DNA of 64,000 nucleotides from Patescibacteria group bacterium. Its GTDB lineage: Bacteria; Patescibacteriota; JACPGU01. Position 1 is the first letter of the stretch. Each line of letters opens with the position of its first letter. Below the pieces are notes generated by a model that was not told the DNA's origin, made no database searches, and saw only the letters and a program-made list of their open reading frames with translations. The position numbers and the translations under genes were made by a program. Below are positions 2,200 through 63,874 of the stretch, piece by piece. The stretch covers positions 75,756 to 139,755 of the forward strand of contig JAKLDG010000001.1 in NCBI GenBank assembly GCA_022703645.1, written 5' to 3'.

Positions 2200-3936
2200 A
2201 TGAAAAAATACGCGATGTTGGCAGTAGCAGTTCTGATGGTGTTTTTTGCGCTGGTGCAGTCTGCGAAGGCTGAGAAGATGATCCTGATCGGCCAGAATTA
2301 CGGCGCTGACGTAACACCATTGATCGAACCGGCTGGGTACAGTCTAACGAGTGAACGCTGGTCTTCGACTTGCATGAAAGAGAAGCCGAAGCATATCAGC
2401 GGAAGTCAATTTGAGATTGTAGGTTTCAAGCTCAAGTGCGGTACGCTATGCACATGCAGTTCGGAAGGTTTTCTTGAAGCCTACGACAATGGGTTGACAA
2501 CTGATCTGGGCGGCGATCTCGGCTATATCATTTCGGTACCTGCAGGAAAAGGCAAATATGATTACTATGCCATTTTCCGAAATGGAGATGATTCAGATTC
2601 TCAGTCGGCGGTACGCGAAGAAGATCAGACTGAAGAAGAAGCCCCCCCGGCGCCACCGGAAAAAACTCCGGAAAATACAACCGCGGCCGCTCTAAACCAG
2701 ACTGACGTGAAAACTGAATATCTGGTTTTTGGCATGGAATCCGAAGATGTCAATAAAGTGCTGAAAATGTTCAACTTTGATATCTGTTCTTCCGGCTGGC
2801 AAAAAGTATGCGTTTTGAAGGGCTATCCCAAGGAAAGTGGGAAGACATCCGAGGGCAAGACGCAGTATGAAGTTAGATACGTCGAACGCGATTGCAACTC
2901 TGCTCAGTCGAAAAAAGCCTTTTTCACTTGCTTTACTTATCAAGGTCAAGATGCTGGAGTGACAATTTCGATCGAGACCGGAAAACCGGGAATTTACGGG
3001 CTCTATGGGAGGATCAATCCGGATCTGAAGAAGAACACGGCTGACAACACAGAATCGAAGGCTCCTGCAGAAAATCAGGCGTCTGCGGCAAAAACTGTCT
3101 CCAGTGCAAAGACGATGGCAACTATCGAAAGAGTAGAGTCTTCGGATGGTGAATCTGAGGGTGGCGGAATACCGCTGAAATTATCGGGAAATGATTCCGA
3201 AGAATCAGAGACATCGTCAAAAGACCTACCGAAAAGCTTATTGATCGCAAAAGTTCCGGAAGCCAAGAGGGAGCTTATTGTCGAGTCCGAGAAAAAACAA
3301 GAAACGAAACCGGTTTCTGCTCCCGAATGTAATGCTACGTCCAGAATGTCAGTCTCTTGTTCGGATGTTTTAATCTCTCTGCTCGACAAGAAGGAAATGA
3401 AAGAAGCGATGGAATTCGCTGCTGCCCAGAAGAAAGATGCTATTATGGTTTATCAAACTTTAGCTGGAAACCGCAGAGTTCTGGGTGTTATGACGCAGGA
3501 AGACAAGAAACTCTATCATTTCTTCGGAGATTTTGGGCCAGAAGACGTGCTCAATCTCGAATGCACCTTTTCGCTCAATGAAGTTCGGCTTGCGATCCTC
3601 AAGATCAAAGGGGAGAAATTGAGTGAAAAGAATGAGATCGGGATATACTTCTCTTATAAAGTAACTGAAGAATCATCGGTCTCCTCGGAGGTCATCGAGC
3701 ATATCGAAAAAGCATCCGGACCGCTTGTGAAATTGAACTTCACTGATACGGATGGAATCGTTTTGGATATTGCGCGGGGCAAGAAGAGCGATAAAACATT
3801 CTCAGTCCCGATCTGCAATATCTATGATGTCAGATCGAAAAATGAGGCGGACACGAACGTCATCCTCGACCTTTATGACAATGCGGCTTGCGCGCCGATG
3901 AAAACAAAAAAAGGCGAGAAGATATCCGCTGAATGA
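2200..3936 (+). CDS. secreted hypothetical protein with a signal peptide and Cys-containing acidic domains
   Basis: Start chosen at the ATG at 2200, 8 nt after an AAAGGAG site. The N-terminus MKKYAMLAVAVLMVFFALVQSAKA is a classic signal peptide. The gene is visibly more GC-rich than its neighbours. I recognise no conserved domain. Confidence 0.6.
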   Translation: MKKYAMLAVAVLMVFFALVQSAKAEKMILIGQNYGADVTPLIEPAGYSLTSERWSSTCMKEKPKHISGSQFEIVGFKLKCGTLCTCSSEGFLEAYDNGLTTDLGGDLGYIISVPAGKGKYDYYAIFRNGDDSDSQSAVREEDQTEEEAPPAPPEKTPENTTAAALNQTDVKTEYLVFGMESEDVNKVLKMFNFDICSSGWQKVCVLKGYPKESGKTSEGKTQYEVRYVERDCNSAQSKKAFFTCFTYQGQDAGVTISIETGKPGIYGLYGRINPDLKKNTADNTESKAPAENQASAAKTVSSAKTMATIERVESSDGESEGGGIPLKLSGNDSEESETSSKDLPKSLLIAKVPEAKRELIVESEKKQETKPVSAPECNATSRMSVSCSDVLISLLDKKEMKEAMEFAAAQKKDAIMVYQTLAGNRRVLGVMTQEDKKLYHFFGDFGPEDVLNLECTFSLNEVRLAILKIKGEKLSEKNEIGIYFSYKVTEESSVSSEVIEHIEKASGPLVKLNFTDTDGIVLDIARGKKSDKTFSVPICNIYDVRSKNEADTNVILDLYDNAACAPMKTKKGEKISAE

Positions 3937-9146: not shown

Positions 9147-10673
9147 ATGTCATTAGCCAAACTTTATTCTGCGACAGTCGTGGGATTGGATGCCGAACCT
9201 ATCGAGGTTGAGGTAGATATTTCTTCTGGAAAAATAATGTTCAATCTCGTGGGGTTGCCGGATAAAGTTGTTGAGGAATCAAAAGAGCGCGTCCGTTCGG
9301 CTGTAAAAAATTCAGACACTACTTTTCCAATGAAGCGCATTACAGTCAATCTTGCTCCGGCCGATATCCGCAAAGAAGGACCGGTTTTTGATCTTGCGAT
9401 TGCAGTTGGGATATTATCCGCGAGCAAACAAGTCGAATTTGATTTTACCAAAACCATCATTCTTGGTGAATTGTCTCTGGATGGAACACTGCGCGCTATT
9501 AAAGGAGTTCTTCCAATTACCGCAATGGCTATCGAGCAAGGATACGAAAAAGTATTTTTGCCTTATGATAATCTCGAAGAAGCGCGGATTTTACCAGGAT
9601 TAGAAATTTACCCTTTGAAAAATCTGAAAGAATTAGTTGATCATTTTAATGGAACAGCATTGGTTATCCCGGTTGTTTCTGGCGGAATATTGGAAAAAGA
9701 AGTTATCGAAGAAAGTAAGTTTGATTTCTCATTCGTGAAAGGTCAGGATCAAGCAAAAAGAGCGCTCGAAATCGTGGCGGCGGGCGGGCACAATATTCTC
9801 ATGAATGGTCCGCCCGGAAGCGGCAAAACACTACTTTCAAGATCACTGCCAACAATTCTACCCGCAATGACGCTGGAAGAAATGCTCGAAGTAACAAAAA
9901 TTCATAGTGTTTCAGGAATATTGCCGGAAGGCGAAGCGCTGGTTCGAACCCGTCCTTTTCGCGCGCCGCATCACACCAGTTCTGCCGTTTCGATAGTTGG
10001 TGGAGGAGCTTTCCCAAAACCAGGCGAAATATCTCTCGCACACCGTGGGATTCTTTTTCTGGACGAATTACCGGAGTTTCCAAGATTTGTCCTGGAAGTC
10101 CTGCGGCAGCCGCTGGAAGACGGTGTGGTGAATGTTTCCAGAGCTAGCGGCGCAGTCTGTTTCCCAGCGAAATTTATCCTTGTAGCTGCGCAAAATCCCT
10201 GTCCTTGCGGGTACTTGACAGATCCAGTAAAGCAATGCACTTGTTCTTCTTCAACCATCGCCAGATATCAGAAGAAGATTTCCGGGCCTCTGCTGGATCG
10301 CATTGATCTGCACATTGAGGTTCCAAGAGTAGAATATTCAAAACTTGCTTCTACTGAATCAGGTGAGGCTTCAGCATCGATCCGAAAACGCGTTGAAGCA
10401 GCGCGTAAAATTCAACAGGAAAGATTCAGGAGCAACAAAAGTAAAATATTTTCCAATAGCGAAATGGGTTCGGACGAGGTAATTAAGTATTGCATTCTTG
10501 ATGAAGGCGCAAAAGCGCTGATCAAAAATGCGGTGAGTCAAATGCATCTTTCTGCGCGCGTTTACCATCGGTTGCTCAAGATTTCCCGAACCATCGCGGA
10601 TCTTGATAGCAGCGATATTATAGAACAAAAACATATTGCAGAAGCATTGCAATATAGAGTGAGAGAGAAATAA
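9147..10673 (+). CDS. comM: YifB/ComM-family Mg-chelatase-like AAA+ ATPase
   Basis: N-terminal Lon-protease-like domain, then an AAA+ core (GPPGSGKT) and the C-terminal ChlI-type domain. Full length, about 508 aa. Confidence 0.85.
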   Translation: MSLAKLYSATVVGLDAEPIEVEVDISSGKIMFNLVGLPDKVVEESKERVRSAVKNSDTTFPMKRITVNLAPADIRKEGPVFDLAIAVGILSASKQVEFDFTKTIILGELSLDGTLRAIKGVLPITAMAIEQGYEKVFLPYDNLEEARILPGLEIYPLKNLKELVDHFNGTALVIPVVSGGILEKEVIEESKFDFSFVKGQDQAKRALEIVAAGGHNILMNGPPGSGKTLLSRSLPTILPAMTLEEMLEVTKIHSVSGILPEGEALVRTRPFRAPHHTSSAVSIVGGGAFPKPGEISLAHRGILFLDELPEFPRFVLEVLRQPLEDGVVNVSRASGAVCFPAKFILVAAQNPCPCGYLTDPVKQCTCSSSTIARYQKKISGPLLDRIDLHIEVPRVEYSKLASTESGEASASIRKRVEAARKIQQERFRSNKSKIFSNSEMGSDEVIKYCILDEGAKALIKNAVSQMHLSARVYHRLLKISRTIADLDSSDIIEQKHIAEALQYRVREK

Positions 10674-10675
10674 AA

Positions 10676-10702
10676 AAAGAGAGGCTTGGCCTCTCTTTTT
10701 TT
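10676..10702. terminator. bidirectional intrinsic terminator
   Basis: AAAAAAGAGAGGC-ttgg-CCTCTCTTTTTTT lies between convergent genes. Confidence 0.8.
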
Positions 10703-11018
10703 ATTTCACGTTCTGCAAGATATTGAAAAGCTTTGTCGCGATGCTTAGTAGAAATCCTGTTTGACGGTCGATGAAGTAGATGATTATAAACATTACGATA
10801 ACCGAGATTATCAGGGTGAGCGAAAGCCTGATATCTTTTTTTATTAACGCAAATTCACTCACTTCTTTATCAGAAATCGTTATAGGTTTCGTAGCTGTTG
10901 TGGCAGCGCTAAATGTTGAAGCGAATCCGGTCGGTGCGCCAACGCCAGATACACCTTGGGTGCCTGATTGAATTTGTGATTTGATGAGTTGTTTGAGAGC
11001 CTTGTTTTTCTTAGACAT
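10701..11018 (-). CDS. small hypothetical membrane protein
   Basis: The first ATG (MSKKNK) is at 11018; the longer ORF begins with TTG. There is one C-terminal transmembrane helix. Confidence 0.45.
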   Translation of the reverse strand: MSKKNKALKQLIKSQIQSGTQGVSGVGAPTGFASTFSAATTATKPITISDKEVSEFALIKKDIRLSLTLIISVIVMFIIIYFIDRQTGFLLSIATKLFNILQNVK

Positions 11019-11202
11019 CGTTGTTTTTTTAATAGTATTCGGTGCGATAAAGATATTGTAGAGCAAAAATGATGGTAAATCAATAAACAAAATTGTTAAA
11101 TGGTTACATTGCTACATTGCTAAGGGGGTGGGTAGGTACTGTTAAAAGTTTAAAGAATAATGTAGTAATTCAACAATGTGGCCATGTTAAGCCATAAAAG
11201 TA

Positions 11203-11231
11203 TTGACAAGAATAGAAAAGTATGCTAATAT
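11203..11231 (+). promoter_or_regulatory. sigma70 consensus-like promoter: TTGACA, 17 nt, TAATAT
   Basis: TTGACAagaatagaaaagtatgcTAATAT. A second TTGACA occurs at 11269. Confidence 0.5.
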
Positions 11232-11417
11232 ATGCATATAGTACAATATTTAAGACATAATGTATATATTGACAAAATATTAAAAATTGGCGATATTACT
11301 GCCTTTCATCTAGGAAAAATTAAAAAGACGGCTTTTAAATAATATTTATACCGTCGCCTATGAAGGGTAGCAATCTCGTCAATTTTTTAAAAAATTATCA
11401 CCTGAGGAGGTGAGAAC

Positions 11418-11519
11418 ATGGAAGCAGTAATTCCTTTCGCGATACCGATATTTGGTGTGTTCGTGTGGCATATGTTTACGTGCAGACCAAAACATCCCGG
11501 GCATGTAATCCGCCCGTAA
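11418..11519 (+). CDS. small ORF 1 (33 aa, hydrophobic N-terminus)
   Basis: GAGGAGGTG lies 6 nt before the ATG. Product: MEAVIPFAIPIFGVFVWHMFTCRPKHPGHVIRP. Confidence 0.4.
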   Translation: MEAVIPFAIPIFGVFVWHMFTCRPKHPGHVIRP

Positions 11520-11544
11520 AAAACAATCGGGAGGTGGTGGAGGT

Positions 11545-11688
11545 ATGTGTCAACAATGTCCAAAAGAGAAACGCGAAGGATGCTCATTTCTGCTTGATGC
11601 GGAAACGAGCAATCTCGCAGCGGGGGGAATTGATTTTTGCCTCGCAGAACACGAGATGAAGAATGTACGGAAACGCGCAGTAGCATGA
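11545..11688 (+). CDS. small ORF 2 (47 aa, CxxC-containing)
   Basis: GGGAGGTGGTGGAGGT lies immediately upstream of the ATG. Product: MCQQCPKEKREGCSFLLDAETSNLAAGGIDFCLAEHEMKNVRKRAVA. Confidence 0.4.
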   Translation: MCQQCPKEKREGCSFLLDAETSNLAAGGIDFCLAEHEMKNVRKRAVA

Positions 11689-11719
11689 AAAAATCAGAAA
11701 TGGAAAGGATGTGGAGGAA

Positions 11720-11806
11720 ATGTCAAATTTGGAAATTGCTGAGGTGGTTGCTGAAGAATTCGACATCACCATTCAAGAGGCATTGAGCATAATTCTTTCG
11801 AAGTAG
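11720..11806 (+). CDS. small ORF 3 (28 aa, acidic helical peptide)
   Basis: AAAGGATGTGGAGGA lies upstream. Product: MSNLEIAEVVAEEFDITIQEALSIILSK. Confidence 0.3.
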   Translation: MSNLEIAEVVAEEFDITIQEALSIILSK

Positions 11807-11831
11807 TTCTGATCACCCGAAAAGGGTTTTA

Positions 11832-11858
11832 AACCGCCTAGTAAAGGCGGTTTTTTAT
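11832..11858 (+). terminator. rho-independent terminator
   Basis: AACCGCC-tagtaaa-GGCGGTT followed by TTTTTATTTT. Confidence 0.8.
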
Positions 11859-11885
11859 TTTACCAAAAAATGATAGAATGAAGTT

Positions 11886-13937
11886 ATGTTTGTAGATATA
11901 GCCGTTAATACAAAAAGCTCAAAGCGTGATGATCTTTTTACCTACTCTATTCCTTCCGAATTAGAGAAAGATATTTTAGTGGGTCAAATGGTGATGATTC
12001 CGTTAGGCTCCAGAAAGGTGAATGGAATTATCATAAAAATTCACGATAAAAAACCTACGTTTAAAACGAAAGATATCGAGAAAATCATCGAACCAATCCC
12101 GATAATTGACGATAAACAAGTTCAATTAGCTTATTTTATCTCAGAGCATTATTGGTGCGGATTTTCTCAAGCGTTGTTTCATATGATACCGGCGAATTTA
12201 CGTAAAAGGAAGACGGCGATTTTTAAGAATTTAGAATCTAAAATAACAAATCTAGGAATGAAAGACAAGATTCTAGCTTCTAGATTCCAGCTTCAATTAA
12301 CTTCCCAACAGCAAAAAGCTCTCAAAAAAATTAACGATGCTTTGAATAGTAAAAAACCCGCAACATTTCTCCTCCACGGTGTTACGAATAGCGGTAAGAC
12401 AGAAGTATATCTACGCGCTTTTGCTCAAGCTTTGGAATCTGGAGGTAGCGGAATTTTTATCGTTCCGGAAATTTCTCTAACCCCGCAAAGCCTGGCAAGA
12501 TTTGAAGAAGTTTTTGGAAAAGACGGTGTTGCGCTAGTGCACAGCCAAATGAGTATTTCCCAAAGGCTAAAAACTTGGATAGAAATAAAAACCGGTAAGA
12601 AAAAAATTGTGGTTGGGTCGCGCAGCGCGGTATTTTCGCCGGTAAAAAACTTAAAAATCATGATTGTCGATGAAGAACATGATCTGATTTCTTTCAAATC
12701 CGATCAAACACCAAGATATGAACTTCACACGGTGGCAGAAAAATTGGCGCAGCTTTCGGGTGCAGTTTTGGTTTTTGGTTCGGGTACGCCACTGGTAACC
12801 AGTTACAAACGCGTGATAGATGGTGAGTGGGAGTATCTTTCAATCTCCGAAAGGGTTGATGGTTCACTTCCACCTCAAATCAAAGTTGTAAATATGGAAG
12901 AGGAAAAGCCAAATGGTGGAGACGGGATATTCAGCGAGTATTTCATCAAGGCTCTTGATATGGTGCTCAAAAATGGCAAACAGGCACTGTTATTCTTAAA
13001 TAGACGCGGAATGGCATCATTTATAATTTGTAATGATTGCAAGAAGATTTCGATGTGCGAGCAGTGCGATTCAGCACTCGTATTTCATTCCATAGATAAT
13101 AAAATGTGGTGCCATCATTGCGGGAGAAAATATCTGCCGCCAACCAGATGCGAAATTTGTGGAGGATTAGATTTTCGATTTCTTGGAAAAGGTACGGAAA
13201 AAATCGAGGAAGAAATCAAAAAGTATTTTCCAGATACCAGAATTGCGCGCATGGATCGCGATACAATGATTGATGATCGAGCTTATGATGAAATTTTTGA
13301 AAAATATAAAAAAGGCGAAATAGATATTCTTGTCGGGACTCAGATGATCGTGCACGGCTGGGATATTCCATCGGTAGATCTGGCGGCTGTTATTTCAATT
13401 GATGAATCACTTCTTATACCCGATTATACTTCAGAGGAAAAGGTTTATGAGCTGGTTACTCAGCTGGCTGGACGTACTGGTAGAAGTAGCGCCAGGGGGC
13501 TTTTAGTTCTGCAGACCGCTACGCCTGATATTTGGATATTTGACACGATCCAGAAAGGCGACTATCTATCTTTTGTTAAAAGGGAACTTCTGACCCGGGA
13601 AAAATTCGGTTATCCGCCATTTGGTCAGCTGATTAAATTGTCAATGTCCGGTTTTGACCGAACTGTGATTGAAAAAAAAGCGATAGAATTATTTGGAAAG
13701 TTGCAGGAAATTAAAAATAAATTAGGAGAAATTAAGGTAGAAATTATCGGGCCGATTAGCCCCTTAGTTGAACGTAAATACGGGAGATACTGGAAAAACA
13801 TAATCATAAAAACAAAAAATCAATCCCCCTTCACTAAAGTTACGGAGGACAGGGAAAACAAAAAATTAATTGAGGGATTATTGAACATGGTACCGAAAGA
13901 ATGGGTTATTGATGTAGATCCGATATCATTATTATAG
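11886..13937 (+). CDS. priA: primosomal protein N' (replication restart helicase PriA)
   Basis: N-terminal 3'-DNA-binding domain, Walker A GVTNSGKT, a DEEH box (IVDEEHD), Cys4/Cys4 zinc fingers (CNDCKK...CEQC...CHHCG...CEICG) and a helicase C-terminal domain. TGATAGAAT lies 6 nt before the ATG. Confidence 0.9.
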   Translation: MFVDIAVNTKSSKRDDLFTYSIPSELEKDILVGQMVMIPLGSRKVNGIIIKIHDKKPTFKTKDIEKIIEPIPIIDDKQVQLAYFISEHYWCGFSQALFHMIPANLRKRKTAIFKNLESKITNLGMKDKILASRFQLQLTSQQQKALKKINDALNSKKPATFLLHGVTNSGKTEVYLRAFAQALESGGSGIFIVPEISLTPQSLARFEEVFGKDGVALVHSQMSISQRLKTWIEIKTGKKKIVVGSRSAVFSPVKNLKIMIVDEEHDLISFKSDQTPRYELHTVAEKLAQLSGAVLVFGSGTPLVTSYKRVIDGEWEYLSISERVDGSLPPQIKVVNMEEEKPNGGDGIFSEYFIKALDMVLKNGKQALLFLNRRGMASFIICNDCKKISMCEQCDSALVFHSIDNKMWCHHCGRKYLPPTRCEICGGLDFRFLGKGTEKIEEEIKKYFPDTRIARMDRDTMIDDRAYDEIFEKYKKGEIDILVGTQMIVHGWDIPSVDLAAVISIDESLLIPDYTSEEKVYELVTQLAGRTGRSSARGLLVLQTATPDIWIFDTIQKGDYLSFVKRELLTREKFGYPPFGQLIKLSMSGFDRTVIEKKAIELFGKLQEIKNKLGEIKVEIIGPISPLVERKYGRYWKNIIIKTKNQSPFTKVTEDRENKKLIEGLLNMVPKEWVIDVDPISLL

Positions 13938-13963
13938 GGGCAGGTTTGAAACCTGCGCCCCTA
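13936..13963. repeat. GC-rich hairpin repeat GGGGCAGGTTTGAAACCTGCGCCCC, overlapping the priA stop codon
   Basis: The same hairpin sequence recurs at 42291..42319 inside a coding region. Confidence 0.7.
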
Positions 13964-13967
13964 CCTA

Positions 13968-13995
13968 TTGACTCGATTTTTAATTAATATATAAT
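13968..13995 (+). promoter_or_regulatory. sigma70-like promoter: TTGACT, 16 nt, TATAAT
   Basis: TTGACTcgatttttaattaataTATAAT sits directly upstream of the ORF-free GC-rich region. Confidence 0.5.
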
Positions 13996-14002
13996 CTAAT
14001 TA

Positions 14003-14494
14003 CATCGGCCGAATTCAAGATGCTCAGAAGTTGTCGTTCGTTTATGAGGCCCCCAGCTTACATAGAAAAAAGAACGATTCGAAACTTATCAAGAAGAGCA
14101 ATAAGGCCGAACACTACGTCGTTATTTTCAAGGCTTAAAAGAGTTTTGAAATGCATTAATTAAAGTTTTGACATGAAAAATCAATCATTTCTGGGGGCCC
14201 AAGAAAATTGGCTGAAGGGCATTCCTTAAAAAAGAGTACCTTTCGGCTGATAGGTTTATCCTCTTTTTAGAGGAGCGGGTTTTTAGGGGATGGACTGCCG
14301 ATCACAGTATTGCACGATCGAATGTACGCATAAAATAGTTTAGCGTCAGATGACGGCAGGAAAGATTTTTTATCCGTAGTACGGTCGCCAAAGAGCTGCT
14401 TGAGCGTAGGGCTCGCGACCACGTTTTACAAGGGGCCGAATGCCCCCCAAACTCTGTGCGCCGAGGATTCCTCGGCGCACTTTCATTTACTTTT
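14003..14494 (+). ncRNA. candidate structured ncRNA of unknown class, about 490 nt
   Basis: No ORF of 60 aa or more on either strand across 13938..14576, in an otherwise gene-dense window. GC is elevated. It has its own promoter and an intrinsic terminator. Long-range complementarity: GAGGCCCCCAG at 14046 pairs with CTGGGGGCC at 14191, and CTGCCG at 14295 pairs with CGGCAG at 14356, plus several local hairpins. No RNase P, tmRNA or SRP signature motifs were found. Confidence 0.35.
14456..14494 (+). terminator. rho-independent terminator
   Basis: GTGCGCCGAGG-att-CCTCGGCGCAC followed by TTTCATTTACTTTT. Confidence 0.8.
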
Positions 14495-14576
14495 CCCGGC
14501 CTTTTATGTTATAATATCAGGGAATAATTAAACAATAAAGCAAGAAATCAAAAAAAACAATAAATCAATATATTTC

Positions 14577-63757: not shown

Positions 63758-63874
63758 ATTTTGTTCTAAATAGCTAAATCATTGATAATAACAAGCCAGA
63801 TTTGACAAATTGGCTTATTTGTGCTATTATTCTAGTGTATTTAAAAAATGCACATTGAAAAGGAGATGATATTG

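Follow-up and report, generated by a model that had tools for sequence, protein, structure and literature searches.

A lineage-specific leader RNA precedes differing sets of small open reading frames upstream of priA in candidate division CPR3

Structured 5′ leaders, and dual-function RNAs that carry very small open reading frames (ORFs), are a known general kind of transcript, and leaders described so far stay linked to the genes under their control. Here we analyse a stretch of 64,000 nucleotides (nt; hereafter the window) from a Patescibacteria group bacterium (contig JAKLDG010000001.1, positions 75,756 to 139,755 of the forward strand), which its PriA assigns to the candidate division CPR3 branch of Patescibacteria. 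Positions 11203–11860 of the window form a single compact transcription unit with a promoter, three small ORFs (ORF1 to ORF3) and a clean terminator, and between the promoter and ORF1 the unit carries a conserved leader hairpin RNA of 109 nt (11281–11389, + strand). The architecture is unusual in that promoter and leader are invariant while the cargo is different in every genome. The RNA family, the orphan peptides and the pairing of an invariant leader with exchangeable cargo are undescribed; no literature describing this locus was found, and to our knowledge no member of CPR3 is in culture and hardly any regulatory RNAs have been described from it. With modest confidence, we favour reading the unit as a strongly expressed operon of fast-evolving small proteins, headed by a new 5′ leader RNA that is specific to the lineage and would act in cis. 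The original prediction, made from the letters of the window without database searches, had listed the promoter, the three ORFs and the terminator, all of which are in place; the conserved leader RNA between them went unseen.

The hairpin begins about 45 nt downstream of the inferred transcription start and has three parts. Its outer stem P1 (11282–11293 paired with 11376–11387) varies in sequence and covaries, P2 is an invariant stem (CUGCCUUUC at 11299–11307 paired with GAAGGGUAG at 11362–11370, 3′ consensus GRARGGURG), and P3 pairs GACGG (11327–11331) with CCGUC (11351–11355), with an AU-rich apical extension beyond. A 5′ bulge of 12–17 nt has AAAA at its end, and the conserved nucleotides lie mostly inside P2 and P3. 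The folding energy of 11281–11389 is −34.8 kcal/mol (z = −6.5). Pairing was assessed with RNAalifold and by pair counts, on an earlier alignment of 10 sequences and a later one of 13. In the 13-sequence alignment, 95.3% of cells were in standard pairs and both-sided (compensatory) changes occurred in 16 of the 28 pairs; none of 500 shuffles matched the observed values, and pairing fell to 40–53% when the partners were slid. An invariant G-U pair together with U-A/U-G alternations assigns the hairpin to the + (transcribed) strand. The hairpin is a real + strand RNA structure under strong purifying selection, and it belongs to no known family.

Related loci were collected from a GTDB genome scan (L001), from PriA homologues 51–73% identical (L081–L084 and L111–L115), from a gapped DNA motif scan of JGI metagenomes (L088, L096, L101, L102, L110 and duplicates) and from protein look-ups (L116, L117 and L118). 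The gene order comM, membrane-protein gene (− strand), this locus, priA is chromosomal and common to all relatives, and among related CPR3/Patescibacteria loci the hairpin was clear in 15 and weakly matched in one more, every time with comM and the small membrane-protein gene on one side and priA on the other. A covariance model built from ten members, R1, scored 90.9 bits in the window, with one copy there and one per locus elsewhere. It gave 82 bits on each of the held-out L116 and L117, 41 and 35 bits on the more distant L113 and L111, and a weak 23 bits on L114. R1 recovered no member among 65 candidate contigs from IMG/VR, and motif scans of that collection gave no true member. The leader RNA family is narrow, covering CPR3 and close relatives.

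Comparison with the closest relative, L117, whose membrane protein is 90% identical to that of the window, locates the conservation. From promoter to ORF1 ATG the two loci share 83% nucleotide identity, and the hairpin alone 88%, versus 51% in the non-coding spacer just upstream and 40% in the ORF1 coding sequence. These values place neutral sites near saturation, and the leader is under strong purifying selection. At the DNA level, the window can be aligned with its relatives only over the promoter and the stretch of about 105 nt holding the hairpin. The leader RNA is the only part of the interval with strong sequence conservation across the lineage.

The raised GC content and strong folding (z = −5.8) had raised suspicion of RNase P, tmRNA, 6S, SRP, ROOL or GOLLD RNA, for all of which Rfam and ARAGORN searches were negative; by eye, the hairpin lacks the GNRA apex of SRP RNA and the central bubble of 6S RNA. 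Its 3′ strand GGUAGUAACC resembles a T-box sequence, and a T-box was rejected on the lack of both an Rfam T-box match and a downstream aminoacyl-tRNA synthetase gene. No Rfam 15 family overlapped the hairpin even at E ≤ 1 (10000–13000 searched), none reached its gathering score anywhere in the window, and ten related loci yielded tRNAs only. The leader motif, previously unclassified, is new, covariation-supported and lineage-specific.

Transcription of the unit can be traced to a promoter at 11203–11231 (+), which comprises a −35 TTGACA (11203–11208), a 17-nt spacer ending in TGc, an extended −10 TG (11223–11224) and a −10 TAATAT (11226–11231). It scores 10/12 against the consensus in addition to the extended −10 TG. 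The 64-kb window contains just two matches to the stricter pattern TTGACA-N14-TGnTAnnnT, where 0.04 would be expected by chance, and the promoter was found at the homologous place in every relative; between the window and L117 it is 86% identical, compared with 51% for the spacer upstream of it. Transcription is inferred to start near 11238. The 5′ leader ahead of the hairpin (11232–11280, +), 80% identical to that of L117, contains a small predicted hairpin, CAAUAU/AUAUUG. The unit ends at an intrinsic terminator (11831–11860, +; AAACCGCC-UAGUA-GGCGGUUU and a U run), whose GC-rich 9-bp stem with 5-nt loop occupies 11831–11853 ahead of the U run. Past it lie the −10 element of priA (TAGAAT) and the priA start at 11886, and equivalent terminators precede priA in relatives.

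A second TTGACA (11269–11274) lies inside the 5′ leader, 17 nt upstream of a GATATT (11269–11297 overall). This TTGACA recurs in about half of the relatives and is missing from one subgroup, and no −10 is conserved with it among relatives. It may be an alternative promoter starting inside the hairpin, or an RNA-level element. Downstream of the other perfect match to the strict promoter pattern (63802–63830) come AAAGGAGAUGA and an ORF, MKTKSITIAGLVMILAGIG, that has a signal- or transmembrane-like N-terminus and continues beyond the window end.

Each of the three ORFs follows a Shine-Dalgarno (SD) sequence at canonical spacing. Calculated against a typical bacterial anti-SD tail, the SD duplex energies are −17.4, −16.6 and −14.3 kcal/mol, compared with a median of −5.4 and a strongest value of −14.0 kcal/mol for the 53 long ORFs of the window, each given its best candidate start. 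The prediction that these sites are unusually strong was therefore borne out without exception (0/53). The motif GGAGG occurs 4 times in 478 nt here and 33 times over the entire + strand of the window, an enrichment of about 16-fold. The longer ORFs that overlap the trio had been said to lack start signals. A 64-aa ORF on the + strand (11465–11659, GTG start) has only a 4-nt GGTG match upstream, and a 99-aa ORF on the − strand (11387–11686) has no SD-like sequence upstream by reading. The exact sequences of these two were absent from the protein collection, in contrast to that of ORF2.

The ORF1 SD, GAGGAGGUGA (11404–11413), is held in a hairpin at 11398–11413 (+), UCACCU-GAGG-AGGUGA, of −8.3 kcal/mol; it is half-paired there, its 3′ half having an unpaired probability near 0, and the hairpin is kept in L117 (UCACCUGGGAGGUGA). 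The ORF2 SD region (11529–11544, +; GGGAGGUGGUGGAGGU) is partly paired in predicted local structure, and that of ORF3 (11703–11719, +; GGAAAGGAUGUGGAGGA) is predicted to be largely unpaired. Within the leader, the pyrimidine run of P2 resembles the 16S 3′ tail (ACUGCCUUUCA versus ACCUCCUUUCU, by eye) and pairs with the SD-like GGAGGG. Given this pairing of anti-SD-like with SD-like sequence, together with the occluded SDs of ORF1 and ORF2, translational gating is plausible on structural prediction.

ORF2 (11545–11688, +) encodes 47 aa and is annotated at NCBI as a hypothetical protein, HRY60090.1. An exhaustive HMMER search of 1.84 billion representative proteins returned a sole homologue, the 49-aa P0123, and a profile search found ORF2 and P0123 to be the only two members of the family; P0122 and P0124 were rejected as homologues, being long repeat proteins with low-complexity repeats of the AGGIDFLLAKY type. 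P0123 is encoded on L116, at the same kind of locus and behind the same promoter and hairpin. The two sequences share 51% amino-acid and 56% nucleotide identity (alignment z = 12.1), with saturated synonymous sites (pS = 0.86) and a pN of 0.33. Conservation of the frames in relatives, judged by the synonymous versus non-synonymous pattern, had been proposed as a check, and for ORF2 the frame is kept; this pattern shows ORF2 to be a real protein-coding gene under purifying selection. The CxxC motif and two further Cys that had been pointed out (Cys 2, 5, 13 and 32) are present, and all four are invariant between ORF2 and P0123. On these residues, ORF2 probably binds metal. An AlphaFold2 model was of low confidence (predicted local distance difference test, pLDDT, of 51.5) and too poor for a fold search, and no Pfam family matched. 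A tblastn search of phages returned only matches of E = 0.09 lying under a mycobacteriophage queuine tRNA-ribosyltransferase gene, which were treated as chance.

ORF3 (11720–11806, +) encodes an acidic helical peptide of 28 aa from ATG (31 aa from GTG 11711 in the ORF list). The L116 gene right after the ORF2 homologue encodes a 31-aa acidic peptide that aligns with it (32% amino-acid identity, z = 3.7, 4 of 2000 shuffles as good), and a profile of the two matches these two only. Kinship of ORF3 with small ORFs of L082, L084 and L101, suggested by eye, was unsupported by profile search. ORF2 and ORF3 probably work as a pair.

ORF1 (11418–11519, +) encodes 33 aa with an N-terminal hydrophobic segment and a basic tail; the first 20 residues have a mean hydropathy of 1.68, and the product is probably a small membrane peptide. 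The first ORF of L117 has the same start place behind the same SD hairpin and is equally hydrophobic (MGLIIVFIAVPLGALVIHEVKKSTLP; MGLIIVFIAVPLGALVIHEV). The alignment between them has z = 2.65, with 64 of 5000 shuffles as good, at 40% nucleotide identity. ORF1 has no counterpart in L116, where ORF2 and ORF3 have theirs, and tblastn of ORF1 against phages gave no match. Of the suggested co-occurrence in relatives, the ORF2-ORF3 part was thus seen in L116 and the association of ORF1 with them was not. The prediction of a small-protein micro-operon stands with unequal strength for its members: an ORF2 homologue under selection supports it, ORF3 does so moderately and ORF1 weakly.

Downstream of the leader, no nucleotide-level conservation was detected between the window and its relatives. 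From hairpin to priA each relative has 340–1630 nt of differing sequence, holding small ORFs with strong SDs and then a terminator, and each genome has its own set of small ORFs behind the shared leader. The variable region has a GC content of 0.42–0.53, versus 0.33–0.45 for priA or the whole locus (9 of 9 loci examined), and the variable regions are moderately more structured than shuffles. Several small-ORF families recur, linking L082 with L101 (E = 1.5e-12), L001 with L083 (E = 1.4e-5) and L083 with L111 (E = 3.4e-5); a profile of the L083 and L111 ORFs and the first ORF of L116 matches only those three ORFs. Since such families recur between loci, the region is generally protein-coding, and the families are distributed as a mosaic among relatives. 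No small ORF of the relatives had a Pfam match above threshold, and PHROGs yielded nothing for the ORFs of the window and one weak match (E = 0.068) for an ORF of a relative.

Other features were noted inside the variable regions. L001 contains a complete tRNA-Cys gene (3694–3767) within its small-ORF region, and at the equivalent place L113 (about 3095–3145) has a fragment resembling a T-arm and acceptor (tcgcca...gcgggttcgaatcccgc tggcga). L082 (about 2810–2875) and L084 (about 2975–3040) share CUGCCUCCACCUCGGAAAAC, an anti-SD-like run whose pairing partner, on the far side of a hairpin, is the SD of the following small ORF; this is a conserved SD-sequestering structure. In L112, where the available part of the contig lacks the leader, a 22-nt unit (catcggcggacaggtcccgcct) is repeated six times in tandem at about 530–680, just upstream of priA. 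Many metagenome contigs end 10–150 nt past the leader hairpin (L088, L096, L102, L110, L117 and L118), and L112 and L115 start shortly before priA; L101 and L115 overlap by 15 nt and are one locus. An interpretation of these breaks as strain-level hypervariability was set aside, as they could equally reflect k-mers shared by co-occurring strains, and they were not used as evidence.

The unit is flanked by a divergent gene for a 108-aa membrane protein (10701–11027, −) and by priA (11886–13937, +), with comM further upstream and def-fmt downstream of priA; nearby genes encode ThrRS, a MiaB-type radical SAM protein, MiaA, ComM, PriA, Def, Fmt, PIG-L and S16. A hairpin flanked by U and A runs (10666–10754) separates comM from the membrane-protein gene convergent with it, and is probably a bidirectional terminator. 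On each strand it gave Rfam matches to 'sraA' and OrzO-P that stay below threshold (34.6 bits, gathering score 56). Between priA and def, the roughly 640 nt at 13938–14576 contain no ORF above 53 aa, where relatives have a gene for 114–137 aa on the − strand; the gene could have been lost here, or the interval could contain an unusual gene or some non-coding element. At 154–380, L116 has an additional consensus promoter in the gap that separates its membrane-protein gene from the promoter of the leader. Downstream of this promoter come a structured stretch that is short and GC-rich, a 16-aa ORF (MMSCSSYSQRAGAKTK) preceded by an SD, and a terminator; Rfam gave no match. Segments of priA 300–750 nt into the gene fold strongly in L001, L082 and L113 (z = −5.7 to −7.8), unlike priA of the window (z = +0.5). 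The PriA proteins of these three loci are longer (703–734 aa), that of L001 having Gly/Pro/Ser-rich insertions.

In the reading we favour, the near-consensus extended −10 promoter would drive an RNA of about 620 nt, of which the first 150 nt or so would be the lineage-conserved leader, dominated by the three-part hairpin. Translation from the strong SDs would then yield a membrane-type peptide of 33 aa, a four-Cys peptide of 47 aa and an acidic peptide of 28 aa, and the intrinsic terminator would close the unit. The unit would be highly expressed, and the small proteins would be abundant, fast-evolving accessory peptides. With a conserved leader in front of cargo that is not conserved, the most likely role of the leader is that of a generic, cis-acting expression element indifferent to the genes behind it. 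It might stabilise or help process the 5′ end, or might offer a site for a conserved cellular factor that sets read-through into, or translation of, the following ORFs. Since the first SD lies 2–23 nt behind the hairpin in the window, L101, L113 and L111, a gap that leaves no room for another promoter, the hairpin must be part of the mRNA.

Several points weigh against this reading. The cis role of the leader is argued from anatomy, and its stem-bound conserved bases suggest a specific partner or alternative pairings. A terminator-like hairpin stands between leader and first ORF in L116, L082 and L001, and less clearly in L081 and L084, and is not present in the window, L101, L113 or L111; in these five or so relatives a separate small RNA or an attenuator would account for it just as well. 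Selection on ORF2 was measured on a single pair from a family of two, the case for ORF3 is moderate and draws on one relative, and that for ORF1 is weak (p ~0.013 by order shuffling over 26 residues). The SD energies, moreover, refer to the typical anti-SD tail and not to this genome's own 16S rRNA 3′ end.

The main competitor, which we regard as unlikely though far from negligible, makes the hairpin a stand-alone, abundant small RNA gene, trans-acting, structural or protein-sequestering. The stretch from hairpin to priA would then be a permissive spot where small ORFs accumulate and are expressed by read-through, and the locus a dual-function RNA like RNAIII/hld. That the leader is conserved whatever follows it agrees with such a gene, as do the rarity of its promoter, one of only two perfect matches in the window, the terminator-like hairpins directly behind the leader in L116, L082 and L001, and a U6 run after P1 in the window and L117. 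In the window, however, that U run pairs with the 5′ A run in AU-rich P1 and would make a poor terminator; the window, L101, L113 and L111 have no separate terminator, their first SD following within 2–23 nt, and the conserved bases lie in stems rather than in the accessible loops usual for seed regions. Were the hairpin instead a ligand- or protein-sensing leader, a riboswitch or attenuator that switches the small ORFs, its promoter-proximal position, covarying outer stems and invariant core would be as expected, and so would the partial occlusion of the ORF1 and ORF2 SDs and the overlap, in L116, of a hairpin CCGCAC/GUGCGG with the 5′ strand of the terminator GCGGGGC/GCCCCGC. We nevertheless think it improbable: from one genome to the next the genes behind the hairpin have neither function nor family in common, an expression platform is missing from about half of the loci, and no Rfam riboswitch matched even at E ≤ 1. 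The lack of a common function makes a metabolite riboswitch unlikely; we know of no established metabolite riboswitch or autoregulatory protein leader with such gene sets.

The original prediction had entertained a toxin/antitoxin-like, RiPP (ribosomally synthesised and post-translationally modified peptide) precursor-like or phage-derived module, and none of these gained support. In such a module the membrane-damaging peptide would be ORF1, with ORF2 or ORF3 acting as precursor, immunity or neutralising partner. The hydrophobic ORF1, with a charged tail and an SD enclosed by a hairpin like that of type I toxin mRNAs, would suit this arrangement, as would the Cys-rich ORF2 with a GG pair and the fast divergence of the peptides. 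A consensus scan, which weak promoters could escape, found no − strand promoter in 11400–11860 and hence none suited to a type I antitoxin. The neighbours are housekeeping genes, with no RiPP-modifying enzyme, C39 peptidase, ABC exporter or other transporter among them; the nearby radical-SAM protein has the UPF0004 domain of MiaB-type tRNA enzymes, and the double-glycine context is off register by reading. Pfam and PHROGs gave nothing above threshold in searches that did not extend to the PADLOC defence library, and relatives do not keep ORF1 together with the ORF2-ORF3 pair, L116 having ORF2 and ORF3 only. We judge a toxin/antitoxin-like or bacteriocin/RiPP-like module distinctly improbable. 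As for a phage origin, there was no phage blastn match, no PHROG match and no occurrence of the leader motif in IMG/VR. It is highly improbable that the small ORFs are untranslated and the whole 620 nt a long structured non-coding RNA with structural SD-like purine runs. The ORF region does fold somewhat better than shuffles (z = −2.6 to −3.1), the variable regions are GC-richer than their flanks in 9 of 9 loci, and SD-like runs are partly paired with anti-SD-like runs; against this, ORF2 is conserved at the protein level with saturated synonymous sites, three further small-protein families recur between relatives' loci, the SD-to-start spacings are canonical, and nucleotide-level conservation is lacking downstream of the leader.

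A bolder interpretation, which we consider quite unlikely, is that promoter and hairpin are a fixed chromosomal expression dock of CPR3 behind which short, GC-rich, strong-SD peptide genes would be acquired, lost and swapped without an integrase. The hairpin could then be recognised by a conserved host factor, or mark a recombination or insertion boundary. If so, the locus would be a hypervariable small-protein island, perhaps serving host or phage interactions of episymbionts, and would represent a novel type of cassette system whose defining feature is an RNA leader.

The locus adds to the RNA motifs of a candidate phylum, CPR3, one that is absent from Rfam, and it includes at least one 47-aa gene, under purifying selection, that standard pipelines would treat as doubtful. 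Metagenomes can be searched for such small-protein loci with the leader model as a specific marker. Once the hairpin's partner is identified, it should become clear how these reduced genomes reach very high expression of peptides that are small and fast-evolving, and perhaps also what part the peptides play in the symbiotic lifestyle.

Among known systems, the dual-function RNAs Staphylococcus aureus RNAIII-hld, Bacillus subtilis SR1/SR1P and Escherichia coli SgrS/SgrT resemble the unit that we read as a small-protein operon with a cis-acting leader: they too are strongly transcribed RNAs of a few hundred nt with a conserved stable structure, very small ORFs and an intrinsic terminator at the end. 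They differ in that sequence and structure show no similarity (no Rfam match), no trans target is known here, and the locus has three ORFs, replaced by others in relatives. The 5′ stabilisers of ompA, ermC and aprE and the processive antitermination RNAs of phage HK022 (put) and Bacillus (EAR) are likewise promoter-proximal and structured, with varied genes behind them, and several relatives have terminator-like hairpins downstream of the leader that would need read-through. Stabilisers, however, are usually at the very 5′ end and not conserved in sequence, whereas this hairpin lies about 45 nt in and has an invariant core; to put and EAR there is no similarity, and no Rfam match of any kind. 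With riboswitches and protein-binding leaders the hairpin shares a place in the 5′ untranslated region, covarying stems around invariant nucleotides and occasional terminator-like hairpins; unlike them, it precedes genes of no common function and has its invariant nucleotides mainly in helices P2 and P3 rather than in junctions. Integron arrays and phage morons differ in context. No integrase or recombinase gene was seen within about 7 kb on either side, no attC-like inverted repeats were seen between the ORFs by reading (no repeat search was run), and the locus has no phage context, being chromosomal and syntenic in all relatives. What it has in common with both is a fixed strong promoter and element followed by variable short genes of distinct composition, with a GC content of 0.42–0.53 compared with 0.33–0.44 across the whole locus, and with gene families distributed as a mosaic among relatives.

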